From a virus (Duplodnaviria > Caudoviricetes), in IMG/VR virus record IMGVR_UViG_3300035698_019959, positions 443 through 64,442 of that record: DNA of 64,000 nt. The stretch is one strand, 5' to 3'. Positions within the stretch are counted from its first letter, which is position 1; the number at the start of each line of letters is the position of its first letter. The notes beneath the pieces were generated by a model, which saw only the letters and a list, made by a program, of their open reading frames with translations, was not told the origin of the DNA and did not search any database. Both the position numbers and the translations under genes were made by a program. This document shows positions 6,776-36,636 of the stretch, piece by piece.

Positions 6776-7711
6776 ATGAAAATATTAGTTACAGGTGGAG
6801 CGGGGTTTATAGGATCTCATATAGTCGATGCTTATATCGATGCCGGGCATGATGTTGTTGTAATAGATAATCTTTCAACCGTCAAAAGAGGTAACTTGAA
6901 TCCTAAGGCGAGGTTGTTTGAATTGGATATATGTTCAAAGGAGGCTTCTGAAGTTTTTGAAGCTGAAAAACCGGATATTTTAAATCATCATGCGGCTCAA
7001 ATAGATGTAAGGATTTCTGCTGAAGATCCTGTGTTCGATTTAAAGGTCAATGTGGGTGGGCTTGTAAATCTTCTCGAGGCAGGAAAGAAAAACGGTCTTA
7101 AGAAGGTTATTCTCGCGTCATCCGGCGGTGCTATATATAGCGATAAGGCAGAGAAGCCTTCAACGGAAGATTCACTTGCGGGTCCTTTAAGTCCCTACGG
7201 TTTAAATAAGTTGATATGTGAACATTATTTATCGATGTATGAAAGGGTTTGCGGGATTAAGTGGGTGGCTCTTCGATATGCCAACGTATATGGACCTCGT
7301 CAGAATCATAAGGGCGAGGCCGGCGTGGTTGCTATATTTATAGATAGATTGCTTTCCGGTGGGGTGCCGACCATTTTTGGTGATGGCAAACAAACCAGAG
7401 ATTATGTATTCGTCGAAGATGTGGTTGAAGCAAATAGGTTAACCCTTGCGGAGGATATGTCCGGTATATACAACGTGGGCACTGCTGTTGAAACTGATGT
7501 TAATGGTATATTCAGTATGATTAGGGAGCTTTCTGGAGCTTCTTGTGAACCGAAATATGGCGAGAAGAATTCATCGGAGTTGCTCAGAAGTTCAGTCGAG
7601 CCTAAAAGGTTCATTGAGAAAAAGGGTTGGAGACCCTCCGTAAGGTTAGATGATGGAATTGTAAAAACCTTTGAATGGTTTAAAAATAAAATAGAGGAAG
7701 AAAACATTTAA
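6776..7711 (+). CDS. NAD-dependent NDP-sugar epimerase/dehydratase (GalE/WcaG-like extended SDR)
   Basis: VTGGAGFIGSH, HHAAQ, SSGGAIY, YGLNK (YxxxK), RYANVYGP, GDGKQTRDYVFVED. Confidence 0.95.
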   Translation: MKILVTGGAGFIGSHIVDAYIDAGHDVVVIDNLSTVKRGNLNPKARLFELDICSKEASEVFEAEKPDILNHHAAQIDVRISAEDPVFDLKVNVGGLVNLLEAGKKNGLKKVILASSGGAIYSDKAEKPSTEDSLAGPLSPYGLNKLICEHYLSMYERVCGIKWVALRYANVYGPRQNHKGEAGVVAIFIDRLLSGGVPTIFGDGKQTRDYVFVEDVVEANRLTLAEDMSGIYNVGTAVETDVNGIFSMIRELSGASCEPKYGEKNSSELLRSSVEPKRFIEKKGWRPSVRLDDGIVKTFEWFKNKIEEENI

Positions 7712-10577: not shown

Positions 10578-10606
10578 TTTAATAAATCATCCTTATTATA
10601 TATAAT
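10578..10606 (+). promoter_or_regulatory. putative late promoter
   Basis: TTTAAT-N17-TATAAT; one of ten equally spaced copies. Confidence 0.65.
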
Positions 10607-10656
10607 TATATTTACAAATGTATCTATTTTCTAATTAAAAAAGAAGGAGATTATCA

Positions 10657-12477
10657 GTGTCTAAGAATTTTCAGTTTTACGTACCCGTAGATATCTATAA
10701 AGACAAAAAAAACAATTACAGAATAAAAGGATTAGCTTCCACTGGAGACAAAGATCTGCAGGGGGAAATAATCAAGCAGCAAGGATTAGACATCTCTGTC
10801 TTGAAGTCTGGGAAGGGTTATCTCAATTGGGAGCACAAGAACGATCCCAAGAATATCATAGGGTTGATTGATGATGCTGAGATAACAGAAAAAGGATTGA
10901 TGGTGGACGGTCAGTTGTTCAAGAAGCACGACCAAGCCAAAGCGGTGCATCAAATCTTAGATTCCCTGGATGATAATCGTAAACATAGAATTCAAATGTC
11001 TGTAGAAGGAACAGTAATCAGTAAGTCAGACGGTAAAGAAAAAGGTTCGGGTAAGGTTATAGACAAAGCAAGAATAACAGCTGTAGCCCTAACGATGAAT
11101 CCTGTTAATAAGAGTACATACGCGGAATTGGTGAAAAGCTTAACAGCTGTAGAAGGATCTGATTTAGGTCATGGGGATGAGTTTCCTTCCTCCTTCTCGT
11201 CCCCTGATCCTTCTATTGACGAAAAGGATATAGATGATACAAAAGATAAAGAAGAAATTATCGGAGATAAAGAAGAGGGTGTCACAAAGAATTTCACAGA
11301 TAAAGTCAAAGAGGGAGTTGAGGAGAAAGTTGAGAATCAGAAAGTCACTGTGGCGGTAGATTATATCTGTAAGAAGGCCGAGGAGAAGGGTCTAGATCCT
11401 ATGGTAGTGTTAGACGGATTTAGTGATAAGCTGATAGAGGATGCTGAAGGTCAAGAGAAGTTTGATAAGTTTATTAAATCATTAGAAAGTAATCCATTTG
11501 CGCTGGATATCATTAAGGTTATGGTACAGGAAGGATATATCAGAAAGGGCGGGAAGGGTTCAGGCAAGAGAGGTCACAAGACTTATAATTCTAACGCATC
11601 AAAAAGACATGGTGGGGCAAATTTAAAAGATCCTGAAAGAGTCAAGGAAGAAACTGCTTACGCGAAGAAAGAAGCATCTCGTAAGGAAGCTCAAAAGCGT
11701 CATATGGATAAGCTTATTGAAAGAAAGAAAAAAGAAGGTAAGCCAACCAAGGGTGTTGAAGATGCGAAGAAAGAAGGTAAGAAGCCTGAACCAGCGGAAA
11801 TGCAAGACGACGATGCAGAGGCAAGAGCTCGGGAGCATTATAATGCAGCATGGGACGATCTAAGCAGTAGTGAGCAAGATTTTATTCAAGCTGAATATGA
11901 TAAAGAACAAGTTGATGGTGGTAAGAAAAAAAAAGAAGGTAAGCCAACAAAGGGTGTTGAAGATGCGAAGAAAGAGCATGTAAAGGATAAGGGTAAAAGG
12001 AAGAAGTCACTCCCAAATATCAAAAGTCTTTTAAAGGCCATCCCAAAAGAAAAGCACAAACAGTTTCTTATATTATTAAAAGCGAATATTGAAAAGGGTG
12101 GGAAGGGTTCAGGAAAGAAAGGACATAGAACAGCCAAAAAGCCTAGACAAGATAAAAGCCAAAAGAAAAATCCTAAAGAGTATAAGGGAGATATAATAAA
12201 AGAAATTGGAACTTTATCTAGGAAAATGGGTGCAGACGCTGAATTTGATAGTGCTGAATCAAGTGATAATGAATTGCGATTAGATTTTAATTCAAGTAGG
12301 CATGGTGGATTCTTTACGCCTAGAGCTGGTGAGCAAGATGATGATTCTCCTAAATTTACAGGAATTGATAAAATAGGTAGTGCTGTACAAAAAATAGTTG
12401 GTAAAGATTTTAATGTTAAGTTAAGAGATTATGAAAAAGGAATGTTCACGATTCGTGTTGTGAGAAAAGGTAAGTAA
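10657..12477 (+). CDS. prohead protease (Herelleviridae-like) with long C-terminal extension
   Basis: IKGLAST.DKDLQGE, YLNWEH, MSVEG, VALTMNPVN..TYAELVKS; GTG start with AAGGAG RBS. Confidence 0.85.
   Translation: MSKNFQFYVPVDIYKDKKNNYRIKGLASTGDKDLQGEIIKQQGLDISVLKSGKGYLNWEHKNDPKNIIGLIDDAEITEKGLMVDGQLFKKHDQAKAVHQILDSLDDNRKHRIQMSVEGTVISKSDGKEKGSGKVIDKARITAVALTMNPVNKSTYAELVKSLTAVEGSDLGHGDEFPSSFSSPDPSIDEKDIDDTKDKEEIIGDKEEGVTKNFTDKVKEGVEEKVENQKVTVAVDYICKKAEEKGLDPMVVLDGFSDKLIEDAEGQEKFDKFIKSLESNPFALDIIKVMVQEGYIRKGGKGSGKRGHKTYNSNASKRHGGANLKDPERVKEETAYAKKEASRKEAQKRHMDKLIERKKKEGKPTKGVEDAKKEGKKPEPAEMQDDDAEARAREHYNAAWDDLSSSEQDFIQAEYDKEQVDGGKKKKEGKPTKGVEDAKKEHVKDKGKRKKSLPNIKSLLKAIPKEKHKQFLILLKANIEKGGKGSGKKGHRTAKKPRQDKSQKKNPKEYKGDIIKEIGTLSRKMGADAEFDSAESSDNELRLDFNSSRHGGFFTPRAGEQDDDSPKFTGIDKIGSAVQKIVGKDFNVKLRDYEKGMFTIRVVRKGK
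11728..11975 (+). repeat. 47-bp direct repeat pair (11728-11774, 11929-11975) inside the protease gene
   Basis: Both copies encode KKEGKPTKGVEDAKKE; one mismatch. Confidence 0.9.
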
Positions 12478-14172
12478 ATGACTTTATACGAAGGATTAAC
12501 ACATTATCCTAAATCAACAGTATTCAATGATGGCCAGATCAGGCTTCTAAATGATTACAGTTCTGCTTTTGCTGATAATAATCTTAATATTGCCCAATTA
12601 TTCTCTAATATCATAGGAAACATCTCTGATTTAGACCTGACAGGTGTGACACAAACAACTGAGGCGATTGACCTATATGTAACGACTACGGGAAGTGACG
12701 GGGCGACAGGAGCTTCTGACGATCCCTATTTAACGATACAGCATGCTATAGATTCAACTCCTGATGTTTATAGTTATAATGTCACAATTCATGTTGGAGC
12801 GGGAACGTTCTCTGAGTCTATAGATGTCTCTAAGCTCGGTAGAAAAGATTACGATATAGATTTTGAAATAGTAGGAACTGAAACTGAATTATTAAGTGAA
12901 ACATATGTAACAATTAGAACATCAACGACTATAGTAGTAGCGGGAGCGGCTTGGACTACTAATGAATTTAGTAATAAGCAATTTGTTGTAACTGCTGGTG
13001 CAGGATATTACGGAGCAGAATATGATTACCTTCAAGTAGCAGTCGTTAGATCGAATACAGCAAACACACTTACGTTTGTTGCATCTCCACCTGGGTTAGG
13101 TGCGACTACGCAATTTAAGATTGTAGAACCAGGAACTATGTTGAATTCTGTTGGGAATTCTTATGGTGTTGAAGTTAATAGTAGTTCTCAAACATTAACT
13201 AAATTTAAGAATATAAAGTTTCAGAATGCTGCCATTGTAGATATCTTAATTAACACTGGTCAGGTGATTTGTGTAAGTTGTGAGTTTGATGCAGGGTTGG
13301 GAAGATATGGTGGTGTAGTTGCTTATGATTTTTTTAGGATATACGGATGTTATATTCACGGAGATTATGCGGGTTCGGGCGTGTTTGCAAGTTTTGGTAG
13401 TGGAGCCATTTATTATTCTATAATTAGCGGAGTCACTAGTTATGGTGCTCGTGGTGTTCGTGCATCAGCTTGTGAGTTGACACTAAAACATAGTTTGATT
13501 GATGATTGTTATGAAGGAGCAGTTGCTGATGTAAATGGTTCTGTTGATTTTACAGGAAGTCGGGTGCGTAATTGTAGTGAGAGAGCTTTTCGTGCTTGGG
13601 GTGGTGGATATATAGAAGCATGGGATTGTAATTGTGATTCAAATTATGTGGTTGCAGCTGCTTTTGCTGGTGGTGAGATTTGGATTGATACTGATAAAGT
13701 AACCGATACAACTTATGCTATATTTGATCCAGGTGGAAGTGGTAGAGTTCAGGATTCAGTTGACGAATCTGTTCATTATAATACATGGGCGGAAGCTGTG
13801 GAAACTGTTAGCACTACAGACGATACAGTTACGCAAATAGCAACGATATCTCTTGTTGAAAGTGAATATCTAAGAGTAGAAGCGGATGTCGGTTGTAGGG
13901 GGAATGGTTCTCGTGATCATGCTTTTTATAAAATAGCGGGATTGTTTTATAGGAATGATGGTGATAATGTAATGCAAGTCGGTTCTGATACTCCGATTAT
14001 GACTCCTATTGAATCGAACATAGCTTTAGACGCAGGTTTTTCCTTAGATGTTCCCAATCAAAGTATAGATATATGGGTGCAGGGGATAGATATGCAAATA
14101 TTTAATTGGCAGGTTTCTTATAAGTATAAGAAAATGGAAGATCCACCTGCTGCTGCAGGAGTTCCTGAATGA
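12478..14172 (+). CDS. putative head fibre/spike with parallel beta-helix (pectin-lyase-like) region
   Basis: YVTTTGSD.ATG..DDPYLTIQHAID and IHVGAGTFSE motifs; G/N/C-rich beta repeats; position in head operon. Confidence 0.65.
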   Translation: MTLYEGLTHYPKSTVFNDGQIRLLNDYSSAFADNNLNIAQLFSNIIGNISDLDLTGVTQTTEAIDLYVTTTGSDGATGASDDPYLTIQHAIDSTPDVYSYNVTIHVGAGTFSESIDVSKLGRKDYDIDFEIVGTETELLSETYVTIRTSTTIVVAGAAWTTNEFSNKQFVVTAGAGYYGAEYDYLQVAVVRSNTANTLTFVASPPGLGATTQFKIVEPGTMLNSVGNSYGVEVNSSSQTLTKFKNIKFQNAAIVDILINTGQVICVSCEFDAGLGRYGGVVAYDFFRIYGCYIHGDYAGSGVFASFGSGAIYYSIISGVTSYGARGVRASACELTLKHSLIDDCYEGAVADVNGSVDFTGSRVRNCSERAFRAWGGGYIEAWDCNCDSNYVVAAAFAGGEIWIDTDKVTDTTYAIFDPGGSGRVQDSVDESVHYNTWAEAVETVSTTDDTVTQIATISLVESEYLRVEADVGCRGNGSRDHAFYKIAGLFYRNDGDNVMQVGSDTPIMTPIESNIALDAGFSLDVPNQSIDIWVQGIDMQIFNWQVSYKYKKMEDPPAAAGVPE

Positions 14173-15118
14173 TAGACGAAAAAGAAATATACAGAATGGA
14201 CAAAAAACTTCATTCAAAACTTCTAGAGATCCCCTCAGCTCAAAAGAAGATAAAGATTCCTAGAATTGAGATTGATTTTAAAAAGCCTTTCAAGTTCTTG
14301 AAAAAGAAGAAGACGGTGAGGTTATGGAAAAAGCCTTAACAGTTGGGCATAGCGGAACAGAAGCTCCAGCGAATAGAACAGGTGCAGGTGCTACTAATAA
14401 AGAAGATATAGACCAAGTGACTAGAATTGTAACATGGGGTCAAGGAGAGTTGTTAGATATGGGTTTCAGCACAAAGAAAAAGAAGAAAATAGCGAAGTCT
14501 ATATTGAAACTAAAAGAACAATTTCCTGATGCTCCTGTAAAAGAGCTTGTTAATGCGGTTATAGATAGAATTGAAAAAGGTAGGGGGAAAGATAAAGGTA
14601 AGAGGAAGAAAAGAAAGTTGACTTCCCAAGAGCTTCAAGCTGAACAAAGGAAATATAATAAGAGATATGGTTCGGACGCTGAACGTAGGGATGGTGAGCA
14701 TGAGGAGAAGGAAGAAAAAAAGAAATTAGATTCGTATGAGAAAAAGTCTCAGCCGCTAGATAAAGACCTGTTCAAATCTATATTAAAGAAGGTTAAGGAG
14801 AATTATCCCGGAACTTCATTTGAGGGGATAATCTATATTACCAAAGAGGTTTATAAGAAAAAGTTTCAAAAAGCCAAATCGTTCACAGCAGACGATGCTA
14901 AAAAGGTAGGAGAGAAGCTAGGAATAGACTGGGATAAGTGTAAGTTTGATGTGAAGCAGTTTCTTATGGGCTTGAAGGTAGAACTAGAGCATGGAACAAA
15001 AGATAAAGAAACGAATGTGACTGGTGATGACATTGTTAAGACAGGTAAGATTGCGTTGGCTCATTTAAAAGAATCACCTGATTACTATACGAAGTTAAAA
15101 GAGATGGAAGAAGAATAG
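14169..15118 (+). CDS. putative internal head polyprotein ending in a DUF5661-like domain; likely starts at 14169 with a -1 frameshift at 14280-14285 (ORF track gives 14324-15118)
   Basis: AGGAG RBS before ATG 14169; C-terminal GLKVELEHG...KIALAHLKESPDYYTKL; KALTVGH...TGAGA segment. Confidence 0.7.
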
Positions 15119-15143
15119 ACAAGAATTGAGAACATTACCTTAA

Positions 15144-15172
15144 TATAAAAAAAGTGCATTTTATTATATAAT
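15144..15172 (+). promoter_or_regulatory. putative late promoter
   Basis: TATAAA-N17-TATAAT. Confidence 0.65.
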
Positions 15173-15197
15173 AAATTAAAGAAAATAAGGAGTTAAA

Positions 15198-15584
15198 ATG
15201 GCCAAAGAAGGCGAGATTAAAAAAATATATAGTGGACTGACGTCGAATGTCACTCTTACTCAAGCTCTACCTAGGAAGATATTTGAACGTAGAGATATAA
15301 CTGTGGCCGTTCGTAAGACGCTTTCAGGTCAAGACGCTATGGCTGGTAATCTAAAGATATATGGTGCCATTAATGACGAAGATTCTTGGTACGAGCATAT
15401 AGGAACTGTCAGTTTAATAGCTGCAGCAAGTGAGACAGAACATTGGCTCTATCCTAATAGTATTGCTGGGCCAGTAGCTGCTACAATGGTTCCTACGAAA
15501 GCAACCTTTCTTTATTTACGTTTTGTAGTTGAGAGCATAGCGAACGGAACCATAGATGTTTGGATGCACGAGATTGAGTGTTAA
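15198..15584 (+). CDS. putative virion protein (beta-rich)
   Basis: AAGGAG RBS; head operon context. Confidence 0.6.
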   Translation: MAKEGEIKKIYSGLTSNVTLTQALPRKIFERRDITVAVRKTLSGQDAMAGNLKIYGAINDEDSWYEHIGTVSLIAAASETEHWLYPNSIAGPVAATMVPTKATFLYLRFVVESIANGTIDVWMHEIEC

Positions 15585-15610
15585 TAAAGAGACGAGAGGA
15601 GAAATAAAAA

Positions 15611-16048
15611 ATGGCTTATGTATATCAGGTTTTAAGTTCAGATCAAGTTAGATTACTCGATGAGTATAGTGGGGCAATGCATAAAGTAAAATTATCAGAG
15701 CTTTTAGATTCTGTTATGGATGTCGCAGCTTCAGGAGCATTCACCAATATAGTAGTTAGTAATAACGCTTCTATTGGAAATGATTTGACTGTTGTTGGTG
15801 CTACAGTTTTAGCAACCTTACAAGTTGGTGGTGGTTACGGAGATACAGGTGTTACTATTGATGCAGATGGTAATCTTTCTGCTGATGGTGTTGGCGATTT
15901 CGCTGCTAGTGGTTTACAAACTACAGTATACACTCCTGCGACTGCAGCAGCAACTGGCGAAAAGGGAATGATCACTTACGACACTTCATATATTTATGTA
16001 TGTGTCGATACGGATACTTGGATGCGAGGAGCAATAGCGACTTGGTAG
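15611..16048 (+). CDS. putative short head fibre/decoration protein
   Basis: C-terminal P.T....G.KG.I.YD..YIYVC...DTW.R....W motif common in phage fibre proteins; N-terminus resembles 12478 and 31914. Confidence 0.65.
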   Translation: MAYVYQVLSSDQVRLLDEYSGAMHKVKLSELLDSVMDVAASGAFTNIVVSNNASIGNDLTVVGATVLATLQVGGGYGDTGVTIDADGNLSADGVGDFAASGLQTTVYTPATAAATGEKGMITYDTSYIYVCVDTDTWMRGAIATW

Positions 16049-16072
16049 TCTAAAAATTAAAAGGGGGAAATT

Positions 16073-17173
16073 GTGCGTATTGGTTTAGTTAGCACTTTCA
16101 ATATAGAGTGTGGAATTGCCACGTATACTCAGCATCTTGTAGAGAATTATCCTAAGAATACAATAATCTTTGCGAACGATTTAGATGGTATGAATGATAC
16201 GGGTGATCATAAAGGTCACCCCATTATTCGTTGTTTTTCTCGTAAGGGCACTCACGAAAGATTATTAAAAGAAATTATAGATTCTAAGGTTGATGTAATT
16301 CATTTTCAACATGAATTTGGCTTATTCCAAAATCACAAATCTTTCTTGGAGCTTTTGAAGGCATTAAAGACTCATTATAATAAAAGGATTGTGATGACTT
16401 TCCACACTGTGTTCACAGACAATCAGTGGAATAGTAAAATATACGAATATTTTAAATGGTGTGATAGGTTTATATTTCATCACGAAGATGCTAAAAAACG
16501 ATTAGATTTATCTAGTTGTTATGTTATTCCCCATGGTTCTGTAGTTGTACGATCGAAGCCGAGATGGGAAGCTCGTGAGTATTTCGGAATCCCGGAAGAT
16601 CGTTTCGTTGCATTGGCGTTGGGGTTTATTACACCAACAAAAGGTGCGGCAGATAGCATTAATGCTGTCATGCGATTAAGAAAGATGTACCCGAATTTAT
16701 TATTAATAGTAGCAGGTACGGCTATTGTTTATGATAATAATTTCACTAATTTAGAATATGCTTTAACATTATTTAAGCAAGTAAGAATGATGAAGGCAGA
16801 AAAAACTATCAAGATCATGTTCAAGTTTATCCCAGAGAACGAGCTTGATTATTTTGCTGGGGTTACAGACATAGCAATAGAGAATTACCATCAGACGCAA
16901 TATTCAACATCAGGAATGAGCCACCTAGTTATGAGTTATGGATTGCCCTCTATTTCTTCTAATTCAAATATCCTAGCAGATTTAACTCCGGAAAGAAGTT
17001 TAAAGTATGATATCGGGAATATTGAACAGATGACTGGTCAGCTAGAAAAGCTTATCACTGATGACGTTTTAAGAAAGCAACTCTCTAGTAATTGTTTAGA
17101 TTATTCAAAAAAAACCTCCTGGCCAAATACTACAAAAAGTCACTGGGACTTATATAACGGCATAGCATTATAG
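16073..17173 (+). CDS. glycosyltransferase, GT4 (GT-B)
   Basis: CGIATYT, HFQHEFGLF, TFHTV, IPHG, LGFITPTKG, STSG motifs. Confidence 0.9.
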   Translation: MRIGLVSTFNIECGIATYTQHLVENYPKNTIIFANDLDGMNDTGDHKGHPIIRCFSRKGTHERLLKEIIDSKVDVIHFQHEFGLFQNHKSFLELLKALKTHYNKRIVMTFHTVFTDNQWNSKIYEYFKWCDRFIFHHEDAKKRLDLSSCYVIPHGSVVVRSKPRWEAREYFGIPEDRFVALALGFITPTKGAADSINAVMRLRKMYPNLLLIVAGTAIVYDNNFTNLEYALTLFKQVRMMKAEKTIKIMFKFIPENELDYFAGVTDIAIENYHQTQYSTSGMSHLVMSYGLPSISSNSNILADLTPERSLKYDIGNIEQMTGQLEKLITDDVLRKQLSSNCLDYSKKTSWPNTTKSHWDLYNGIAL

Positions 17174-17182
17174 GAAAATAAA

Positions 17183-18229
17183 ATGATAAAGACTGATAGG
17201 CTGAGAATAGCAATTACAGGATTTTATGGAGCGGGTAATAGTGGCGATGAGGCTATGCTTCATAACTTAGTATTCAAGATTAAGCAAAGAGTCCCTGATG
17301 CAGTTATACTAGTGGCAACCGATAGAATAGGGGACTGGCAACATGATGATGTTTATTATATGTCAGCGTTAGATAGAGCGAAACTTAGAGAGACAGATAT
17401 CTTTATAGTAGGTGGTGGAGATTTAGGATTTGGGTTCGGTTGGAATTTATTACCTTGGGCAAAAAGGTTTAAGAACAAATGTATTATGATGGGTAGTGGT
17501 ATTAACAGAACATGGAGAGATCCAAATTTTAAAACAGCGATAACTTCTATGTTGGGCTTGTTTGATAAAATATATGTAAGAGACGAAGACTCAGCTTTGT
17601 TTTTAAATGATTTGGGTGTTTATAACAAATACGCTACGGATATGTCTTTTGATCTATGTCAAGTACCATATGTCTTTAGAAAGAGTGAGAAGCATATTAC
17701 CTTATGTATAAGGGAAACAGAAAGTAAGTACGAATCTCAGATGTTGGATTGTGCTATTAGAGTTATAAGAAAAGTTACTACTGATGGATTTACAACAACT
17801 ATTCTACCGCTTTGTGAAGAGGATGCTATAAGATGCGATAAGATCTCTAGTTTCTTCAATGACAAGGTTCAACTGATTCATACACCAGATCCAGAGCAGC
17901 ATAAATATATTATAGCAAATTCAAATTATTTAGTTTCTTTAGGACGTTTGCATTCTTTGATATATGCTACTGATACTTGTACTCCTATGATAGGAATGAG
18001 TTACCCTGTGGTTGAGGAATATTCTAAAATAAATGCATGGATGAAACATATTGATTTAGAGAGGTTTCATTTAGACTTTTCTCCTTCTATAAAGCAATTT
18101 ACAGAGAAGTGGACGCACATGCGAGCGCATGTGGTTGCGGTTAAAGATATTTTACAAAAGCAAAGAGACAGACATATCAAACTTAATAACGATCAGTTCG
18201 ATGATGTCATCGGGTTAGTGGGTGAATGA
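17183..18229 (+). CDS. polysaccharide pyruvyl transferase family protein
   Basis: GFYGAGNSGDEAM, GGGDL, YVRDEDS, GRLHSLIYA. Confidence 0.9.
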   Translation: MIKTDRLRIAITGFYGAGNSGDEAMLHNLVFKIKQRVPDAVILVATDRIGDWQHDDVYYMSALDRAKLRETDIFIVGGGDLGFGFGWNLLPWAKRFKNKCIMMGSGINRTWRDPNFKTAITSMLGLFDKIYVRDEDSALFLNDLGVYNKYATDMSFDLCQVPYVFRKSEKHITLCIRETESKYESQMLDCAIRVIRKVTTDGFTTTILPLCEEDAIRCDKISSFFNDKVQLIHTPDPEQHKYIIANSNYLVSLGRLHSLIYATDTCTPMIGMSYPVVEEYSKINAWMKHIDLERFHLDFSPSIKQFTEKWTHMRAHVVAVKDILQKQRDRHIKLNNDQFDDVIGLVGE

Positions 18230-19230
18230 TGCCAAAGATGACAGTGGGTATAAATACAGCACAAATAGATTATCCTTATTCTGCTTACCCAGACGTGCAT
18301 CTGTTTGAAATGACTATGAAGAGTCTGCGTGAGCAAACTTTTAAAGATTTTGAAGTTGTTGTTGCTGATGTAAATTACGAACAAAGAAAAAACTATTTCA
18401 TAGATCATCCTGAAGACTTTCCAGTTAATCACGTTCCGATAAAGCCAAATATTTGGATTCCATTTAATCATATGGCAATAGCTACTACGAAGAATACAAT
18501 TCTCTTGCATGCAAAGGGTGACATAATTACATCAGTAGGTTCTTCTGTACGTTTGGACAAATACTTTTTAGAAGCTGTTTTAAGCGGTGTGACCGAAGAT
18601 TGTTGTGTGGTTAATCGGTTTTCTATTAATTGTGGGGAAAAGATTATTTTTCATGATGGTAGAGATCCTGCTGATTCTCATTCTTCTGTTCATGGAAATG
18701 TGTCTATGACTAAAGAGAATTGGATGTTAATAAATGGATATGACGAAATGCTTGATGGATGTAAGGGGTTAGAAGATTGTGATATTGGAATAAGGTTGGT
18801 TAGAGCGGGTAAGAAGATAAAGTTGATTGGCCCAAAGATTGTGTATGAAGATCATGTCACTTATTATCCTTTATTGCGTGATGGCCCTGGGTTTCAGAAG
18901 TGTCCGCACCTATTATTAGAGATATCTAAAAAAAGAAGTCAAATTCGTGCTAACGAAACTCCATTGACTGATCAAGAGTATAGTTATTTAAAGATGTGCA
19001 AATTAGGGGATCAAAGAGATAGTTGTATTTTATTTCCTGATCAACCATGCATTCATTGCACTGAAGACAACAAATGTTATTTTGGGGAAGAGCCTGAGTT
19101 GATGGGATTGTATAAGCATCCTTCTTTGATTTTTGATTTAAAAGAAATGCGTAAAAACATTGATTCGGCTATTTTGGCATTAATATATATGTGTAGTCTA
19201 GAAGAATTAAAAGAATTTATAGGGGGATAA
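18226..19230 (+). CDS. glycosyltransferase GT-A (GT2 with GT7C-like C-terminal motif), paralog 1
   Basis: SLREQTFKDFEVVVAD, KNTILLHAKGD, INGYDEMLDG.KGLED.D. Confidence 0.85.
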   Translation: MMPKMTVGINTAQIDYPYSAYPDVHLFEMTMKSLREQTFKDFEVVVADVNYEQRKNYFIDHPEDFPVNHVPIKPNIWIPFNHMAIATTKNTILLHAKGDIITSVGSSVRLDKYFLEAVLSGVTEDCCVVNRFSINCGEKIIFHDGRDPADSHSSVHGNVSMTKENWMLINGYDEMLDGCKGLEDCDIGIRLVRAGKKIKLIGPKIVYEDHVTYYPLLRDGPGFQKCPHLLLEISKKRSQIRANETPLTDQEYSYLKMCKLGDQRDSCILFPDQPCIHCTEDNKCYFGEEPELMGLYKHPSLIFDLKEMRKNIDSAILALIYMCSLEELKEFIGG

Positions 19231-19232
19231 AA

Positions 19233-19748
19233 ATGGATGAATATCAAGAAAGGTACAAAGGGCACCAACAAAGAAAAAGGGAAATGCTGATGAAGATAAT
19301 GGAAGAGAGACATTCTGATAGAATTTTTAGTGATAAAGAAGTTGAGTTGGAGAAGGTGAATGCATTGACCAAGTGTGTTAATTTGTGCCCCACTTCTTGT
19401 GGTAGAAGGGCAATAAGTTTAAAAGTTGTTTCTGATAGAGATAAAAAGAATTTGTTAGGTGGAATTTTAGTGGGTGGAACTGGCTGGATAAATAGAGCGA
19501 AACATATTTTTTTAATTTTTGCAAACGGAGAGGCTTATAAAGCAGGAGATGAAATTAATTTTATGCCATACTTAGACGCAGGGGTGGTAGCTCAACAATT
19601 ATATTTAATGGCTACGACTTTAGATTTAAAATGCTGTTATGTTAATCCGAATATAAGGGAAATGAATAAAGAGCATTTTAAAAATATTTTTGGAGATGGG
19701 CTCTTTTGTGGGGCTTTTGCTATAGGATATGGAGAAAATAATGCCTGA
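19233..19748 (+). CDS. nitroreductase-family protein
   Basis: RHSDRIFS, CPTSCGR, LDAGVVAQQLYLMAT.L.L.CC. Confidence 0.85.
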   Translation: MDEYQERYKGHQQRKREMLMKIMEERHSDRIFSDKEVELEKVNALTKCVNLCPTSCGRRAISLKVVSDRDKKNLLGGILVGGTGWINRAKHIFLIFANGEAYKAGDEINFMPYLDAGVVAQQLYLMATTLDLKCCYVNPNIREMNKEHFKNIFGDGLFCGAFAIGYGENNA

Positions 19749-20757
19749 AATATCTATTTGTGTGGGAACGGCTCATAGCGATCACGCTATGTTGGGTAAT
19801 CCTAAGATGCATATTTTTAAGTACCTCACAAAGTCTTTAAGGGAACAAACCTTCAAAGATTTTGAATTGGTTCTGACGGACACTCTTTATGAGCAGAGAA
19901 AAGATTATTTTAAGAAGTTCCCTGAAGACTTTGTTGTTAAGCATGTTCCTGTGAAGCCGAATATTTGGATGCCTCAGGGATATTGCGCAATAGCTACTAC
20001 TAAGAATACAAGTTTGTTACACGCCGAGGGCAAGATAGTTGTTTATACTGGTGATTGTTCTAGCTTACCTCCTAACTTTTTAAAAACTATTGTAGAAAAA
20101 ATAAGATCGAATCGCTGTATAGCAAACACTTACGAGATATATTCGGGAAGGAAGCAAGTTTTTAAGGATAGGAGAGCTCCTGGAATAGTCCAAGGTACGT
20201 ACGGTAATGTTTCTTTATATATGAAGGACGCATTAGAGCTGAATGGATACAATGAGATGTTTGATGGCTCTAAGGGTTTGGAAGATTGTGACTTTGGTAG
20301 GAGAATGTATTCTAAGGGAATGATAATTGAATTAATAGATCTCCCTGTTCGGTATCAACAACACAAGGGTGACTTCCCAACTTTAGAAGCTCAACCACTA
20401 AAATGCCCAAGACTGATGGAAATGATGAGCTGTGATAGATCTAGGATAAAAATATATAAAGCAAATTCTGTACCGTATACAGAAAAGGAAATTGATCGCT
20501 TGTTAGAATGTTCTGAAATATCAAAAGGCCATTTCTGTAAATATGTACGAGATATTAATGGTGACTCAATTGAATGTAGAAGTGGGTTGAATCAAGACGG
20601 TAAGGCAAAATATAGTGATGTTGTTAAAATAAGATTTATGTACAATCATCCTTCTTTGATCTTCGATTTAAAAGAACAAAAGAAGAGTATAAATAAAGCT
20701 TTGTTCGATTTAGACAAATTATGTCAAGATGTGGGGGCGAGATATGCCAAAAGTTAG
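19741..20757 (+). CDS. glycosyltransferase GT-A, paralog 2
   Basis: SLREQTFKDFELVLTD, LNGYNEMFDG.KGLED.D; GGAG RBS before ATG 19741. Confidence 0.85.
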   Translation: MPEISICVGTAHSDHAMLGNPKMHIFKYLTKSLREQTFKDFELVLTDTLYEQRKDYFKKFPEDFVVKHVPVKPNIWMPQGYCAIATTKNTSLLHAEGKIVVYTGDCSSLPPNFLKTIVEKIRSNRCIANTYEIYSGRKQVFKDRRAPGIVQGTYGNVSLYMKDALELNGYNEMFDGSKGLEDCDFGRRMYSKGMIIELIDLPVRYQQHKGDFPTLEAQPLKCPRLMEMMSCDRSRIKIYKANSVPYTEKEIDRLLECSEISKGHFCKYVRDINGDSIECRSGLNQDGKAKYSDVVKIRFMYNHPSLIFDLKEQKKSINKALFDLDKLCQDVGARYAKS

Positions 20758-21775
20758 TGTAGTATATACAACAATTAGAAGAGACTTTCCTATGTTAAGT
20801 TTGCCGGATATTCATCAGTTTACTATGTTTTTAGATTCTGTTGAGAAGCAAACTTTTAAAGATGATATAGAAGTCATTATAGTAGACGCCTTAAAGGATC
20901 GCAAAATAAGCAATCCAATTACTCCTATGTTTGATGGGGTTACTAGAGGTGATTTTGATTTTTCTAAGTACTCTTTCCCGATAAAGCATATCAGACCTTT
21001 GCCAAGTTATTGGTTAGACGAAGGATTTTCGTCTTATTGTCATTGTGTTAACACTGGCATTATTGCTGCTGATGGTGAGTTGATTGTATTATTTGATGAT
21101 TGTTCAGAAATAATAGGCACGGAAGCTTTAGAATTACATTGGGAGTGGTATAAGAAAGGTGACGGTAAACAGTTCGCTCGTTCTATTTTTGAATACTGGA
21201 AAGGCGGTTCTCCTGTTCTACATCATCCTGATCATAAGACCCATGCGGGAAGACCCATAAGACATTCGGCATATGATTATCTTGCTAGAACAAATAAATT
21301 ATATTTAATACACGAGAAGATGTTTTGTGCCTTTGGGTATTACTCGTTTAGTTTAGATGTGATGTTAGAGTTGAACGGATATAATGAAATGTTTGATGGA
21401 GCGAAGGGTGCAGAAGATTTCGATATGGGCTGTCGCTTAATAGATTTTGGTGTTCGGTCGATAGCGGATATGCGGTTAAGAGTGATAGAACATTTCCACG
21501 AGCCTATGGTTTTCCATGGAGTAAACCATAATCGTGGTCGTAGGAATAATGTTGCTATTCACGAAGCACTCTTAAAGCGCGGTCCAACATTTAAAAGAGC
21601 AAATGAGAAGCCGCTGACCGAAGAAGAATATAATTTTATGTTAGAAAGAGATAGAGTGTATGTTCCTAATTTTGTAGAAGACGAGTATATTAAGAGAATT
21701 AAAACTCACCCACCAATTTTTGATTTAAAAGACCTGAGGAGGAAATATCGTGAAGGATTCTATGATGAGAAATAA
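20744..21775 (+). CDS. glycosyltransferase GT-A, paralog 3
   Basis: QTFKDDIEVIIVD, NTGIIAADGELIVLFDDC, LNGYNEMFDG.KG.ED.D. Confidence 0.85.
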   Translation: MPKVSVVYTTIRRDFPMLSLPDIHQFTMFLDSVEKQTFKDDIEVIIVDALKDRKISNPITPMFDGVTRGDFDFSKYSFPIKHIRPLPSYWLDEGFSSYCHCVNTGIIAADGELIVLFDDCSEIIGTEALELHWEWYKKGDGKQFARSIFEYWKGGSPVLHHPDHKTHAGRPIRHSAYDYLARTNKLYLIHEKMFCAFGYYSFSLDVMLELNGYNEMFDGAKGAEDFDMGCRLIDFGVRSIADMRLRVIEHFHEPMVFHGVNHNRGRRNNVAIHEALLKRGPTFKRANEKPLTEEEYNFMLERDRVYVPNFVEDEYIKRIKTHPPIFDLKDLRRKYREGFYDEK

Positions 21776-22331
21776 TGGTGTAAAAGAAAGAATTTATATT
21801 ACTGATAGTGAGTTAGAGATTATTGAGAACAGGTTATCGGTAGAAGCTCATGTCCAGAGATATGGCTTTGTGCGTCAGTATGTTCACGATCATGTTTTAG
21901 ATTGTGCTTGTGGGTGTGGGTACGGAACTTATATGTTATCTAAGAACCCTGATGTTAAATCTATTATAGGAGTTGATAGATCTAAAGAGGCAATTGATTT
22001 TGCTATGGATAATTATTGTGATAAAAAAACTTTTTTTACTCATTGTGAAAATATAGAAGATTTTGAGGTTGAGTGTATAGATCAGTTGGTTTCTATAGAG
22101 ACGATAGAGCATTTAAAAGATCCCATGACTTTAATAGAGATGGCTATAAGGAATGAGGTTCCGGAATTAATTATTTCTTTCCCGACTAAAAAGTCCACTC
22201 ATTATAATAAGTTTCACTATCATGATTTTACATTCAACGATATCAAAGAGATGTTGGTTGGATATTATAAGGTAAAAGATTCATTTGAATATAAGCGAGA
22301 AGTAGGGTTTGTTTTCGCCAAAAAAATATAA
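21762..22331 (+). CDS. class I SAM-dependent methyltransferase
   Basis: H.QRY.F, VLDCACG.GYG, GVD, SIETIEHL. Confidence 0.9.
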   Translation: MMRNNGVKERIYITDSELEIIENRLSVEAHVQRYGFVRQYVHDHVLDCACGCGYGTYMLSKNPDVKSIIGVDRSKEAIDFAMDNYCDKKTFFTHCENIEDFEVECIDQLVSIETIEHLKDPMTLIEMAIRNEVPELIISFPTKKSTHYNKFHYHDFTFNDIKEMLVGYYKVKDSFEYKREVGFVFAKKI

Positions 22332-22345
22332 GGAGAATAAAAAAA

Positions 22346-23083
22346 ATGAAAGCTTCTGATTTTAATGCAAAGTATTATGATAAGAACTATTTTGTAACCC
22401 CAGAGGGCAAAAAATTTCATAACGCTGATGGTAAGGAATTGGGTTGGAGTTATAATAACCCTGAAGGAGAATTCTTAGGAGCTGGCCCGATAGCTCAGGC
22501 TTGGGCAACAATTTTCAAACCTAAGAATATGTTAGATGTGGGTTGTGGCCGTGGAACATTCGTAGCGTATGCTCGCAAGGCGGGTATTGAAGCGCACGGA
22601 TTTGATTTTTCAGAATTCGCTACAAGCGAAGAAGGAAAGTATGCTGGTTGTGAAAAGGGATGGTTAAAGTGTCACGATGCTTCAAAACCTTGGCCGTATC
22701 CAGATAATCATTTTGATTTAGTAACGTGTTTAGATTTGTTCGAACATATTTACGAAGAAGACCTACCTCAAGTGATTAATGAAATGTTTAGGGTAGCAAA
22801 GAAGTGGGTATTTATTCAAATTTGTACGGTTAATGGCCAAGAAGGTTATACACTAGGTAAGAAAGAAAGTGTTCCGATAGAGCTTGAGGGAATGGCCGTT
22901 GCAGGACATGTTTGCATTAAGCCAGAGTATTGGTGGAATTATAGGTTTTATAAAAATGAGTGGCTTCCTAGGAAGGTTATGACCGAGAGATTTATTTCTC
23001 TGGTGGATAACAATATTATTTCCAATTGGATAAGGAATTCAATTTTAGTTTTTGAAAAAGATATCGATGGTTCGGGGGAGTAA
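22346..23083 (+). CDS. class I SAM-dependent methyltransferase
   Basis: MLDVGCGRG, GFDFS, FDLVTCLDLFEHI, GHV.IKPE.WW. Confidence 0.9.
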   Translation: MKASDFNAKYYDKNYFVTPEGKKFHNADGKELGWSYNNPEGEFLGAGPIAQAWATIFKPKNMLDVGCGRGTFVAYARKAGIEAHGFDFSEFATSEEGKYAGCEKGWLKCHDASKPWPYPDNHFDLVTCLDLFEHIYEEDLPQVINEMFRVAKKWVFIQICTVNGQEGYTLGKKESVPIELEGMAVAGHVCIKPEYWWNYRFYKNEWLPRKVMTERFISLVDNNIISNWIRNSILVFEKDIDGSGE

Positions 23084-23111
23084 TTAATTTTAACAACATG
23101 AGAGAGTGGTA

Positions 23112-24053
23112 ATGAAAATTCAATTTTTTAAACGTACTGATACAACATCTTTTGATTATTTGGGAACTTGTATTTCAGAGATCTGTAGGGCTCATGGTCA
23201 TAAGGTCGTTGTAAAGAGTATAAATAAATTTGTAGAGGGAGAAGGTATTGAGAGAGCTGAAGTGGGGATGTCTTATGGTTTAATTTCTGATATAAGGCAT
23301 CTTGCTGCTTATCCTATAAAAATTGCTGGCTTGGTCTGTGAGAAGGATTTAACCCCTAAAGAAATAAAAATAATTAAAAATATAGATCCTACAGAGATTT
23401 GGGTACCTAGTGAGTTTGTAATGAAGAAATTCCAAGAGGCTGGTTTTATAAAAAACTTGGCATTGGTTCCTCATGGTTTGGGCGAAGTCACAAAGGTTAA
23501 GAATAAAAAACGTACGGATAAGGTTCTAATGATTTTTAATTCTTATAAGAAGGCAGATTTTAGTGTAGAAAGAAAAGGAATTTTTGAAGTACTAGAAGCA
23601 TGGGGTAAATATAAAATACCACAAAAATTGATCCTAAGAACCAAGTATAGAAATTATTATGGAAAATATGATCTATCCAATGTTTCTTTTATAGAAGATA
23701 GAGTCGAAGATATCGGTGGATTGTTAAATGATTGTGATGCTGTTCTTTGCCCTAGTTATTCAGAAGGGTTTGGGATTGTTGGGTTAGAGGCTTTGGCTCA
23801 TGGCGTTCCCTTGATATCGACCAAGACGGGGAATGATTATCTTCAAAAGGATGTTTTTTATACTCATATAGATTTGCCAGTGACAGTAGAAAAGATAAAG
23901 ATAGCTATTGATGAGACGTATTTAGATTTAGATATAAATAAAAAAATAGCAATGGGGCAGGCTGATCGAGTATATAAAAAGTATAAATGGCAAAGTCTTT
24001 ATAAGATAATTGAAAAAAGAATTAGTGTTTTAAAATCTAAGAGATACTCCTAA
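23112..24053 (+). CDS. glycosyltransferase, GT4 (GT-B)
   Basis: VPSEF, VPHG, RKG, PSYSEGFGIVGLEALAHGVP (Ex7E). Confidence 0.9.
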   Translation: MKIQFFKRTDTTSFDYLGTCISEICRAHGHKVVVKSINKFVEGEGIERAEVGMSYGLISDIRHLAAYPIKIAGLVCEKDLTPKEIKIIKNIDPTEIWVPSEFVMKKFQEAGFIKNLALVPHGLGEVTKVKNKKRTDKVLMIFNSYKKADFSVERKGIFEVLEAWGKYKIPQKLILRTKYRNYYGKYDLSNVSFIEDRVEDIGGLLNDCDAVLCPSYSEGFGIVGLEALAHGVPLISTKTGNDYLQKDVFYTHIDLPVTVEKIKIAIDETYLDLDINKKIAMGQADRVYKKYKWQSLYKIIEKRISVLKSKRYS

Positions 24054-24082
24054 TTTAATTTTGATGAACAATTATATATAAT
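24054..24082 (+). promoter_or_regulatory. putative late promoter
   Basis: TTTAAT-N17-TATAAT. Confidence 0.6.
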
Positions 24083-24129
24083 AAATAAATGAATAAAATT
24101 TTATATAATCAAGAAAGGGGAATTATAGA

Positions 24130-25050
24130 ATGAGTTATAAACAAAATATGTTTCTTTCACCAGCAGAGAAAGAAATAATTAATACACTTATGCCGGGTGG
24201 GTTCCAGGCAAATATGTTGGAGATTTGGGCAAAAAGCGATGAGACGAATTTTCTTTACAAATTTAAGAACGCAAACTCTTACGCTAGAATTGCTTATACA
24301 AGTGCTACTGTAGTTGCTCTTGCTTCAGAGACTCCTTGGCTTTATGATGTCTTGAGGGGCTATTTAGTTATAGATGGGGTTACAGCTGGTATTGATCTTG
24401 ATAAGATGAATCTTACTTTAGAGCCAGAGCCGATGATTGCTAATGGAGATGATGGTTTAGCCGCAGATATTACAGTTTCTGGCGCGGGTGGATTAGACAC
24501 TGGTATAGAAGCGGTTTCTACTTGGTATTATGTTTTTGCTATTGGTAAGTCAACTGATCCAACAGATGTTGATCTTCTTTTGAGTGCCTCTGCGCCAACT
24601 GATGATATCACACTTCCGACTGGTTATGATTTAGCTGTTCGTATTGGTATGGTTTACAACAATGCTTCAGGCGATTTTGCTTCATTCCAAGAAGTAGATT
24701 GTTTTAATTATCGTGAATATTGGTTCACAACTAGTATAAAGATTTTAGAAGATGGTGCTGAAACTGATTGGACAGAAGTTTTTCCTGATGCTCTTCCCGA
24801 TAGAATTGCTATAACAGTTCTTGGATCATTTTTAAGATTTAGTTTAGATGCATCTTGTGAAGCAAGCGTAGGTTACACTACTGGAATTGAATTCTTCAGT
24901 TTAGATTATGCTTTGGCTCAGTATCATTATAATAATGAGTACATGCCTAATCTTTCAGATGAAGAGATTTGGTATAAGGTTACGAGTGGTGGTGGCGAGA
25001 CCATGGATATATATGTAAATGGATTTAAGTATAATACTTATATTGGTTAA
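24130..25050 (+). CDS. putative fibre/decoration protein, paralog A
   Basis: GGLDTG.EA.STWYYVFAI...LPTGYD...IG..YNN.SGDF..FQ domain typical of phage fibre proteins. Confidence 0.65.
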   Translation: MSYKQNMFLSPAEKEIINTLMPGGFQANMLEIWAKSDETNFLYKFKNANSYARIAYTSATVVALASETPWLYDVLRGYLVIDGVTAGIDLDKMNLTLEPEPMIANGDDGLAADITVSGAGGLDTGIEAVSTWYYVFAIGKSTDPTDVDLLLSASAPTDDITLPTGYDLAVRIGMVYNNASGDFASFQEVDCFNYREYWFTTSIKILEDGAETDWTEVFPDALPDRIAITVLGSFLRFSLDASCEASVGYTTGIEFFSLDYALAQYHYNNEYMPNLSDEEIWYKVTSGGGETMDIYVNGFKYNTYIG

Positions 25051-25080
25051 AAATAATTTAAAGAAAGTGGAGGTTTAATA

Positions 25081-25980
25081 ATGTCAGTTTTTCAAAAATT
25101 TTGGTTAAAAGCAGGTATTGATCTTTTGACTTTGGATACGCTTAATCCAGGTAAAATGGAAGCGGGTTTGGCTCTTGAGCAAATGGGTGCCCTAACAAGA
25201 ATGGGTGCATTCCAGGATCTTATGAGTAAAATAGGTACAGGATTTAATTGTATACATTCTAATAGTGCTTCGGCATATATAGAGAATGGTGGATATGATT
25301 ATGATGTATTGGCTCTTGATAATGTTGAAGAGGATGCGAGTCATTTTTTTACAACTCCTGAACCTATGTATGATCTCGACAATGAGAACACTAAGACCGT
25401 AAGTCTTGCTGTTTCTGGTCTTGATGGTTTAGACACTGGAACAGAAGCGGTTTCAACTTTGTATTATCTTTATGCGATTGCAAATTCTAGTTACCCTGGA
25501 GTTATTCATGGTATTTGGAGTGTAGAGTCAGAAGTTGGTGATGTTACATTACCTACGGGTTATGATCAAGTTGTTCCAATTTCTTTTGCGTATAACGATA
25601 GTGGTAGTGATTTTGAACCATTTCAAACTTATCCTACACATACAGATGGAGGCAGGCGTTATGTTTATTTGAATGCCCCTTCTATTTTAGCAGCTGGTGA
25701 GTCCGCTACGTATGTAGAAATTGTAAAAGCAAGTGCAAAAGTTCCTGATTGGAAAATTAATGGTGTTTGGATTAATATTTATACTAGTGATGGTACAAGT
25801 GTTTTTACCTTTAATAACAATTCTTGGAGTGATGGTTTATTTTCTACAATTTCTGTTCGTGAACCTATGGTTTTCGTTCCAAGTGACGATGGTTCTGTTC
25901 ATTACAAAAGAACAAGTGGACAAGGAACTGTGGCAGTAGAACTTGTTGCAATTGATTATGTCACTGTCGATGTAGATTAA
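25081..25980 (+). CDS. putative fibre/decoration protein, paralog B
   Basis: Same GLDTG.EAVST.YY.YAI...LPTGYD...YND.G.DF..FQ domain as 24130. Confidence 0.65.
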   Translation: MSVFQKFWLKAGIDLLTLDTLNPGKMEAGLALEQMGALTRMGAFQDLMSKIGTGFNCIHSNSASAYIENGGYDYDVLALDNVEEDASHFFTTPEPMYDLDNENTKTVSLAVSGLDGLDTGTEAVSTLYYLYAIANSSYPGVIHGIWSVESEVGDVTLPTGYDQVVPISFAYNDSGSDFEPFQTYPTHTDGGRRYVYLNAPSILAAGESATYVEIVKASAKVPDWKINGVWINIYTSDGTSVFTFNNNSWSDGLFSTISVREPMVFVPSDDGSVHYKRTSGQGTVAVELVAIDYVTVDVD

Positions 25981-35606: not shown

Positions 35607-35708
35607 GTTTTTCAGTAAAACCGCTAAATAGCTGATTTATAAGGTGAAAAAAGATGATTTTTTTCTTTTCTTCTATACCGGATGGGTATATAATATAGTT
35701 ATTGATTG
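35601..35708 (+). repeat. ~108-bp promoter-bearing direct repeat, copy 1
   Basis: Near-identical to 36528-36636; contains an IHF-like site (35625-35637) and TATAAT (35689-35694). Confidence 0.9.
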
Positions 35709-35736
35709 GTTGAAAAACAAAAAAGGAGTTGATAAT

Positions 35737-36513: not shown

Positions 36514-36527
36514 ATAGGGTGTTTGGC

Positions 36528-36636
36528 CTATAAGTTTTTTCAGTAAAACCTCTAAATAGTTGATTTATAAGGTTAAAAAAGATGATTTTTTCCTTTTCTT
36601 TTATAGAGGATGGGTATATAACATAGTTATTGATTG
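36528..36636 (+). repeat. ~108-bp promoter-bearing direct repeat, copy 2
   Basis: Contains TAAATAGTTGATT (36553-36565), an exact match to the IHF consensus YAANNNNTTGATW, and TATAAC. Confidence 0.9.

Follow-up and report, generated by a model that had tools for sequence, protein, structure and literature searches.

The window analysed here is a stretch of 64,000 nucleotides (nt) from the IMG/VR virus record IMGVR_UViG_3300035698_019959 and covers nearly all of a 64.4-kb viral contig that is rated about 58% complete. The phage is uncultured and metagenome assemblies are its sole source; "salt lake metagenome" is the label on all the sequencing runs that contain this DNA. The subject is the gene of a prohead protease with a long C-terminal extension. 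Within this extension lies an acidic module of 37 amino acids (aa), and a second copy of the module is placed in the product of a small open reading frame (ORF) elsewhere in the window. The features of both loci are the following:

10657-12477, + strand: ORF of the prohead (head maturation) protease, 606 aa, with a 440-aa C-terminal extension
10657-11136, + strand: catalytic domain, protease aa 1-160, which ends at the conserved ELVK↓S (the arrow marks a candidate cut, here and below)
11725-11775, + strand: direct repeat B1, which encodes KKKEGKPTKGVEDAKKE
11800-11910, + strand: acidic module copy 1, protease aa 382-418, with 12 acidic and 3 basic residues
11926-11976, + strand: direct repeat B2, which encodes the same 17-aa peptide as B1
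36665-37018, + strand: acidic 117-aa ORF, isoelectric point (pI) 4.7, with a strong ribosome-binding site (AAGGAG 6 nt ahead of the ATG)
36689-36799, + strand: acidic module copy 2, aa 9-45 of the 117-aa ORF, with 12 acidic and 4 basic residues

An acidic module present in two genes

The 606-aa protein is assigned to the prohead proteases of the Herelleviridae type by profile and by homology, in both cases for aa 1-164 only. The PHROG profile phrog_1028 (head maturation protease) matches aa 2-164 with an E value of 4.2e-34, and aa 4-164 share 37% identity with SPO1 gp3.2. A first-pass annotation had called the gene a late prohead protease, a name that suits the first 164 residues and nothing beyond them. 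A tblastn search with the protease matched 697 phage records, mostly of Staphylococcus, Bacillus, Enterococcus and Listeria myoviruses, with all the matches confined to about aa 1-173 and none covering 80% or more of the query. The LVK↓S that closes the catalytic domain is kept in 10 of the 10 proteases listed. H60 and S115, which we take to be the catalytic pair by analogy with the HK97 protease, are invariant among the five aligned proteases. No Pfam family reaches E ≤ 0.01 for the 606-aa protein or for eight relatives, and this blank is treated as a sensitivity gap in Pfam because the PHROG profile does match.

The two copies of the module align without gaps and are identical at 26 of 37 residues, as counted on the translations and as the first-pass annotation had described. 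BLASTP of the pair gives 26/36 identities (E 2e-15), and in an all-against-all BLASTP of the + strand ORFs of the window the same pair appears with E 3.5e-13 as one of seven pairs at E ≤ 1e-3. At the DNA level 84 of 111 positions are identical. The adjoining 30-nt blocks match at 5, 9, 11 and 14 of 30 positions, which is the chance level, and the borders of the module are therefore sharp. The residues common to both copies include Y14, W18, L21, I29 and Y33 of the module, consistent with either a small hairpin core or folding upon binding. A six-frame hmmsearch detects no third copy in the window (next match E 2.3). A diverged copy in the ORF at 14324-15118, suspected by eye, was dropped, the module profile giving E 58 there, as was an internal translation start at M382, ahead of which no AGGAG-like site is found. 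We read the 37-aa segment as an acidic peptide specific to this lineage, copied within the genome between two unrelated genes.

The module copies differ by 11.2 synonymous differences over 17.8 sites (pS 0.63) and by 15.8 non-synonymous differences over 93.2 sites (pN 0.17), which corresponds to a ratio of non-synonymous to synonymous change (dN/dS) of 0.14 (Fisher p 2.8e-4). When 27 random substitutions were simulated, a mean of 18.6 of the 37 residues remained identical, and the observed 26 were reached in 0 of 20000 trials. The substitution pattern thus indicates purifying selection on the module in each gene and points to an old duplication with the peptide conserved in both. That the two proteins conserve this peptide makes it most likely that the copies bind the same partner.

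The module in the protease is flanked by B1 and B2, which the first-pass annotation had given as 47-bp direct repeats placed as if the module had been inserted between them. The repeats are real and slightly longer. By repeat search they span 50 nt at 96% identity (11725-11774 and 11926-11975, spacing 201); in codon register they span 51 nt, of which 48 are identical, and all three differing codons are synonymous. Target-site duplications were rejected, because the 51-nt repeats are too long and all their differences are silent. For the latter reason the repeats are a conserved pair of basic peptides and no fresh insertion scar. B2 starts with a run of nine A at 11926-11934. By reading, a slip of one base in this run would lead to a stop about 16 codons further on, and such a candidate slip would yield a protease that ends just past the module.

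The region 10600-12600 was compared with the contigs of four runs. The pieces from other studies (record 13 of X2, 11719-12080; record 26 of X4, 11712-11882) are identical to the window. No joint that skips the module is present in these contigs; contigs drop rare variants, so that the absence of a module-less variant is not demonstrated by this comparison. The cluster of the protease has one other member, identical except for the start codon. The module pair is known from one genome, and no strain variation is seen in the contigs or in the protease cluster.

Searches for the module beyond the window are limited by its short length. A two-copy profile run against 1.84 billion representative proteins returned the protease alone, a weak blank, because the 117-aa ORF itself was not returned. 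Pattern scans gave 69 matches in viral contigs and 190 in metagenome contigs, with none confirmed in either, and a six-frame hmmsearch of the loci of nine relatives gave E 0.71 at best. The word-index search with aa 165-606 of the extension found the query alone among 7998 candidates scored. Scans of viral contigs for relatives of the protease gave 24 pattern matches with the whole protein and 21 with the alignment, none of which was confirmed. The ESM Atlas held no usable match, and the PADLOC matches, all weak (E 0.002-0.02), were disregarded. The first-pass annotation had named as a check whether homologues of the module occur in other genomes both as free early genes and in head polyproteins. 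This check fails for the module, because no homologue was found at all.

The variable centre of the protease extension

The extension was compared with those of other long proteases, and the features that follow from this comparison and from structure models are:

11539-11583, + strand: bracket motif A1, IRK↓GGKGSGKRGHKT, aa 295-309, candidate self-cleavage site (from the repeat family and the translation)
11548-12036, + strand: predicted released fragment, aa 298-460 (163 aa, 18.3 kDa, pI 9.6), with B1, module and B2, under the predicted cleavage
12088-12132, + strand: bracket motif A2, IEK↓GGKGSGKKGHRT, aa 478-492, candidate self-cleavage site
12169-12474, + strand: alpha-beta domain at the C-terminus, aa 505-606; no other part of the extension is modelled with confidence
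Pieces predicted for the whole protein: aa 1-160, catalytic; aa 161-274, pI 4.3; aa 298-460, pI 9.6; aa 481-606, pI 9.8; and a few short peptides

Eight long proteases were found besides the query, nine proteins in all among 988 candidates. The four closest share 72-79% identity over aa 1-170; they can be aligned with the window protease as far as about aa 290 and then over about aa 449-477, the sequences between these points being unrelated. The module is missing from all four, as well as from the metagenome loci L010-L012. An alignment of five proteases together with L010 gives the order of blocks as catalytic domain, acidic stretch, helical block, variable region and conserved basic/helical tail block, and the conserved helical block ends with F-(I/V/L)-K↓SLE-x-N-(P/E)-FA. 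The variable region is flanked by brackets of the form h-x-K↓GGKGSGK(K/R)GH. In L010, brackets of the GGKGSGKK(D/G)H type (LIK↓GGKGSGKKDHKT and FAK↓GGKGSGKKGHIT) surround a different cassette of about 150 aa, and the relative P0011 has the bracket LAK↓GGVGSGKRGHTT. All five bracket motifs, two in the window, two in L010 and one in P0011, follow h-x-K.

From conservation and enrichment we infer the head-protease cutting rule [LIVMFY]-x-K↓[AGS] for this clade. The capsid proteins of the window, of SPO1 and of Aerococcus phage AVP all contain L-x-K↓A-L close to the N-terminus, without variation, and the ORF at 14324-15118 has this motif at its start. The window protease contains 12 sites, against 5.2 in shuffled sequences (P 0.004); among the relatives, L010 has 10 against 4.5, and P0014 and P0017 have 11 against 2.2. 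The scaffold candidate of the phage contains nine in 247 aa, the capsid protein two and a 564-aa beta-helix protein one. By this rule the alignment indicates that the centre of the extension is a hypervariable slot, bracketed by motifs that the protease may cut.

No candidate site lies between K297↓G and K460↓A, nor does one adjoin the module or the repeats, so that the module would stay within a net-basic fragment of about 163 aa. This bears on the proposal of the first-pass annotation, by which the module is an acidic mini-protein, possibly one that mimics DNA or counters host defence, and is freed between the 17-aa repeats, packaged, injected and also made early. The composition of the module (12 acidic against 3-4 basic residues in 37), its purifying selection and its place in a variable slot speak for such a peptide, which is nevertheless quite improbable. 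The nearest predicted cuts are at K297 and K460 and none is in or beside the repeats, which argues against a free 37-aa product. Likeness to DNA mimics found no backing: no Pfam family matches, the PDB sequence search gave a single chance-level match (E 1.5), and the module is modelled with low confidence, at a predicted local distance difference test (pLDDT) of 39-54. Known DNA mimics have about 56-120 aa, and a peptide of 37 aa is far smaller. The early timing is also unsupported: the small ORF had been placed in an "early island" behind an "early-type promoter", and the sigma-70 scan lists no promoter in 36514-36664.

The contents of the slot differ between relatives. A PHROG scan of five relatives and L010 detected the protease domain only, except in P0011, where aa 409-504 match the whole 98-aa profile phrog_9437 (function unassigned; E 4e-24). 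A 131-aa part of P0011 matches 49 isolated phages of unrelated hosts (Vibrio 19, Rhizobium 9, Sinorhizobium 4, Rhodobacter 3, and others) over about 97 aa. In 14 of the 15 rows listed the matched protein is hypothetical, and one lies under a gene annotated as cytidyltransferase. One genome was inspected, that of Rhodobacter phage RcMotherGoose, and there a free gene of 100 aa encodes the homologue, within a run of small genes between the helicase and nucleotide pyrophosphohydrolase genes. The matches indicate that the slot of at least one relative holds a domain found elsewhere as a free, small, non-structural gene. The pattern that the first-pass annotation had proposed is therefore seen, but for a different module. 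Its view of the extension as a carrier of functional cargo can be kept in part. That the extension carries swappable content is a fair statement, because the slot differs between relatives and the P0011 domain is free elsewhere, whereas for the acidic module there is no second genome.

Short segments are also shared between protease tails and other proteins. The ORF at 33072-34013 (+ strand, 313 aa), in the head-tail block of the window, contains at aa 146-184 a Gly/Lys-rich segment of 39 aa (KGCPGDKKRSDGKGKGHG...) that resembles aa 225-263 of P0016 (29/39 residues, 74%, E 1e-15). P0016 is a distant prohead protease of 727 aa from another metagenome, and the shared segment lies in its tail. 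In the tails of P0010, P0011 and P0013 the conserved block is followed by HKY(F/V/I)KRE-x-RG-x-K(W/Y)-x-Y-x-YKD, which recurs at about aa 11-52 and 428-478 of a 1047-aa ORF directly 3' of the L012 protease. These similarities indicate that, in this group, protease tails and other proteins exchange short modules.

The variability of the slot could also arise from immune evasion. Host sensors would recognise the protease or its tail, and the module would be the current filler, acquired by illegitimate recombination from the small gene or in the reverse direction. Mutations that escape the cyclic-oligonucleotide-based anti-phage signalling system (CBASS) are reported in prohead protease genes (10.1101/2023.05.21.541620), which agrees with this idea, as does the segment common to P0016 and the ORF at 33072-34013. 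A mere filler, on the other hand, would not give a dN/dS of 0.14 with near-saturated synonymous change, and the flanking 17-aa repeats are conserved as peptides too. We give this explanation very little probability.

The position of the gene was considered together with the question of a scaffold. The canonical place of such a protease, between the portal gene and the scaffold and capsid genes, is not found here. No portal gene was matched among the scanned ORFs upstream of the protease, in a contig that is about 58% complete, and the scaffold candidate and the capsid gene are 14 kb downstream. As scaffold candidate we take an ORF of 247 aa (26047-26790), rich in charged residues, which immediately precedes the capsid protein gene (26824-28302) and is weakly similar to SPO1 gp3.3 (E 4e-4). 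The extension shows no similarity to the scaffold proteins of SPO1 and AVP. The extension as the scaffold of this phage was rejected on both grounds; since a separate candidate adjoins the capsid gene, a scaffolding function of the extension is not required.

A further explanation, unlikely in our view and still to be reckoned with, is that the extension serves assembly or regulation within the producing cell. The lysine-rich extension with its acidic centre would build or time the prohead core, and nothing would be delivered. The module, net -9 between segments of net +13 and +22, would balance charges against the acidic aa 161-274 or the scaffold, and the small protein would dock at the same site and modulate the protease or the assembly. 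Protease tails tether the enzyme to the core, and the propeptides of T4 gp21 are discussed in this context (PMC9026906); for the prohead protease of Bas13 a "scaffold domain" is described (10.1101/2023.05.21.541620). For a part with such a role conservation is expected, yet the slot differs wholly among proteases whose catalytic domains share 72-79% identity. Moreover, one slot is occupied by a domain that unrelated phages encode as a gene of its own, outside their structural regions, and the scaffold candidate is a separate gene.

The C-terminal domain is the part of the extension for which structure models are informative. Over aa 505-606 most blocks have a pLDDT of 66-85, two at about aa 548-566 being low, and the order of elements is helix-strand-strand-helix-strand-strand. 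The structure search was informative for aa 500-605 only and returned generic ferredoxin-like or alpha-beta matches (Z ≤ 7.9).

The small ORF and neighbouring genes

The second copy of the module forms the N-terminal part of a small protein that is otherwise defined by its C-terminal half. The further features of this locus are:

36842-37015, + strand: C-terminal small domain, YKPKIKIxKPNGETNWLDIEE, the sole part common to relatives
36536-36636, + strand: 101-nt intergenic element upstream of the 117-aa ORF, with a TATAAC box
35608-35708: second copy of the 101-nt element, with a TATAAT box, 92% identical to 36536-36636

A search with the 117-aa ORF returned seven proteins including the query; the six homologues have 65-91 aa and match about aa 50-117 only. 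In viral contigs, five of 102 pattern matches are loci with a homologue, again of the C-terminal half only. The module is absent from all 11 of these relatives (six proteins and five loci). No match was found by tblastn against 50,697 phage records, and Pfam gave nothing below E 0.06 for seven members of the family. The homologues in viral contigs sit in arrays of small ORFs, and one contig also has a gene of the DUF932 type, a near neighbour in the window.

In the window, the 117-aa ORF is preceded by a 289-aa HNH-repeat/ROS-MucR gene and opens a run of small ORFs of 4-5 kb, ahead of a 307-aa ORF and the tail sheath gene. The two copies of the 101-nt element flank the 289-aa gene (35644-36513), whose real start is probably the ATG near 35738. 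The whole of 35608-36636 resembles the insertion of a homing-endonuclease-like gene with a duplicated intergenic region, which may hold a promoter. The DUF932-type gene (phrog_1221) is split into two overlapping + strand ORFs, 37739-38149 (136 aa) and 38131-38571 (146 aa), and the split could reflect a frameshift, a sequencing error or decay. The locus L004 has an intact DUF932-type gene of 313 aa, 1.4 kb 3' of its YKPKIKI-family gene.

The ORF at 14324-15118 (+ strand, 264 aa) opens with a copy of the N-terminal region of the capsid protein. From the conserved K↓ALTV onward it is identical to aa 22-59 of the capsid protein at 18 of 38 residues (E 9e-7). It contains five candidate head-protease motifs and two weak segments that resemble protease tails (profile E 0.0016), and it ends in a DUF5661 domain (E 7.5e-23), of which no mention was found in the literature searched. 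Its product is a candidate head-internal protein.

The N-terminal place of the module in the small protein, together with its absence from the relatives of that protein, would also suit a loading signal. The module of the 117-aa protein would pair, like with like, with the protease module, or else with the basic repeats, and the protein would be carried into the prohead. The N-terminus of the ORF at 14324-15118 copies the N-terminal region of the capsid protein, and the phage therefore does reuse head-related leaders. Against such a signal, the 117-aa ORF is without candidate cutting motifs and lies among small accessory genes, not head genes. The "tag" would also be present on one protein only, whereas tags of the T4 type are found on several. 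We regard this explanation as improbable.

Further genes lie near the protease and capsid genes. The stretch of about 14 kb between the protease and the scaffold and capsid genes (12478-25980, + strand) encodes the 564-aa beta-helix protein, which is pectinesterase-like (a weak match), at least four glycosyltransferase-like proteins, a polysaccharide pyruvyl transferase and a methyltransferase, and an epimerase gene lies upstream of the protease at 6776-7711. A sugar-modification island is not usually found in such a place. Directly 3' of the capsid gene, a 544-aa ORF (28403-30037, + strand) matches homing/HNH endonuclease families and a Mom-like DNA modification profile (phrog_1384, E 2e-33).

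A possible cargo slot in comparison with known systems

The slot, its brackets and the second copy of the module can be joined in one proposed mechanism. The protease would cut itself at the two brackets after prohead assembly. This would free the net-basic fragment of about 163 aa, mostly disordered or helical, with the acidic module at its centre. The fragment would then lie within the capsid, from where it could exit with the DNA at infection, like the internal proteins of T4. The second copy of the module would be an N-terminal add-on to a small accessory protein that is made from its own gene. We infer the cleavage at the brackets, the retention in the head, the injection, the common partner and any anti-host role. 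That cleavage in the prohead liberates the slot content, a basic fragment which includes the acidic module, and that this content binds the same partner as the copy in the small protein, has by analogy a chance somewhat short of even.

The presence of one acidic peptide both in a swappable slot of the protease and at the N-terminus of a small accessory protein hints at, and does not prove, a role of the protease tail in bringing accessory peptides into the capsid. A wider proposal, tentative and held with a good deal of doubt, is that in this salt-lake SPO1-like clade the protease also carries cargo. A slot in its tail, prone to recombination and placed between self-cleavage sites, would capture the products of small accessory genes, which would be pre-loaded and enter the next host with the DNA. 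The module would be an active, partner-binding core, supplied both pre-made from the head and newly made on the small protein.

Several points weigh against a cargo slot. The cutting rule is deduced from conservation and enrichment, and no measured head-protease cleavage site for SPO1-like phages was found in the literature searched, PMC3601020 and PMC5923470 among it. The cassettes of the window and of L010 show no similarity by BLASTP, even at the bracket motifs, and a profile of canonical protease tails does not match the tail of the window protease itself. The motif [LIVMFY]-x-K-[AGS] has no occurrence in the 117-aa ORF, and therefore nothing ties the 117-aa protein to the head. The module is in no collection searched, so that its presence in both contexts cannot be replicated. 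The AlphaFold2 models are of low confidence. For the 117-aa protein the mean pLDDT is 54, with 42-50 in the module; for the protease the mean is 43, and the module, which is probably a pair of helices, is modelled as helices 384-400 and 404-421 at the low values given above. The phage is known only from metagenomes. Fragments of proteases and scaffolds also often exit the capsid.

If the proposal of a cargo slot is correct, it adds to the tag system of T4, the known means of loading, and to the MuF or portal domains, the known carriers, a second and structurally different route by which fast-evolving accessory peptides are loaded into a phage head. The route would be present in a Herelleviridae-like family, which includes therapy phages. 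It would offer a natural bracketed insertion site for the packaging of foreign peptides, and the contents of the slot across relatives would reveal host-directed phage factors. If the slot does not carry cargo, there would still be short peptide modules that are shuffled between head and accessory genes and kept by selection.

The DNA-mimic anti-restriction proteins Ocr and ArdA are, like the module, strongly acidic phage-encoded polypeptides, whereas the module has only 37 residues, without a confident fold or a family match. Proteases combined with scaffolds, as fusions or nested genes, are known from lambda (C/Nu3) and from P2 (gpO). These and the Bas13 protease have in common with the window protease a long, non-catalytic C-terminal part of a head protease that enters the prohead core. 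They differ in that the window has a separate scaffold candidate, and in that the extension is hypervariable and without similarity to the SPO1 and AVP scaffolds. In SPO1 and AVP the protease has 256-268 aa (SPO1 gp3.2, 256) and is encoded between the portal and scaffold genes, whereas the window protease has 606 aa.

MuF polymorphic toxins and polyvalent proteins combine a head-associated N-terminal domain with a variable C-terminal part and are thought to be packaged and injected (PMC5576092, PMC5512222). The window protease has the same layout, with a conserved head-associated N-terminal domain and a C-terminal part that varies among close relatives. Pfam detects no MuF, toxin or enzyme domain in the window protein or in eight relatives, and phrog_9437 is the only match in a slot. 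The two systems differ in the carrier, here a prohead protease and not a MuF or portal protein, and in the payloads, which are short (37-100 aa).

A likeness in outline is seen with T4, which loads variable, non-essential internal proteins (IPI, IPII, IPIII and Alt) into the prohead core, where they are trimmed and kept until they are injected (PMC9026906). IPI blocks a restriction enzyme, and processed core fragments of gp22 and gp67 stay in the head (PMC9026906). The phage of the window has a protease of the SPO1/Herelleviridae type, known from sequence alone, with the putative h-x-K↓[AGS] and not the cutting rule of T4. The T4 leader ends in a cutting motif, whereas the 117-aa ORF has none of the candidate sites. 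T4 has several tagged proteins; here there are two copies of the module, one N-terminal and the other internal to the protease. Finally, each cargo of T4 is encoded by a separate gene with an N-terminal tag of 10-19 residues, whereas the candidate cargo of this phage lies within the protease polypeptide itself.

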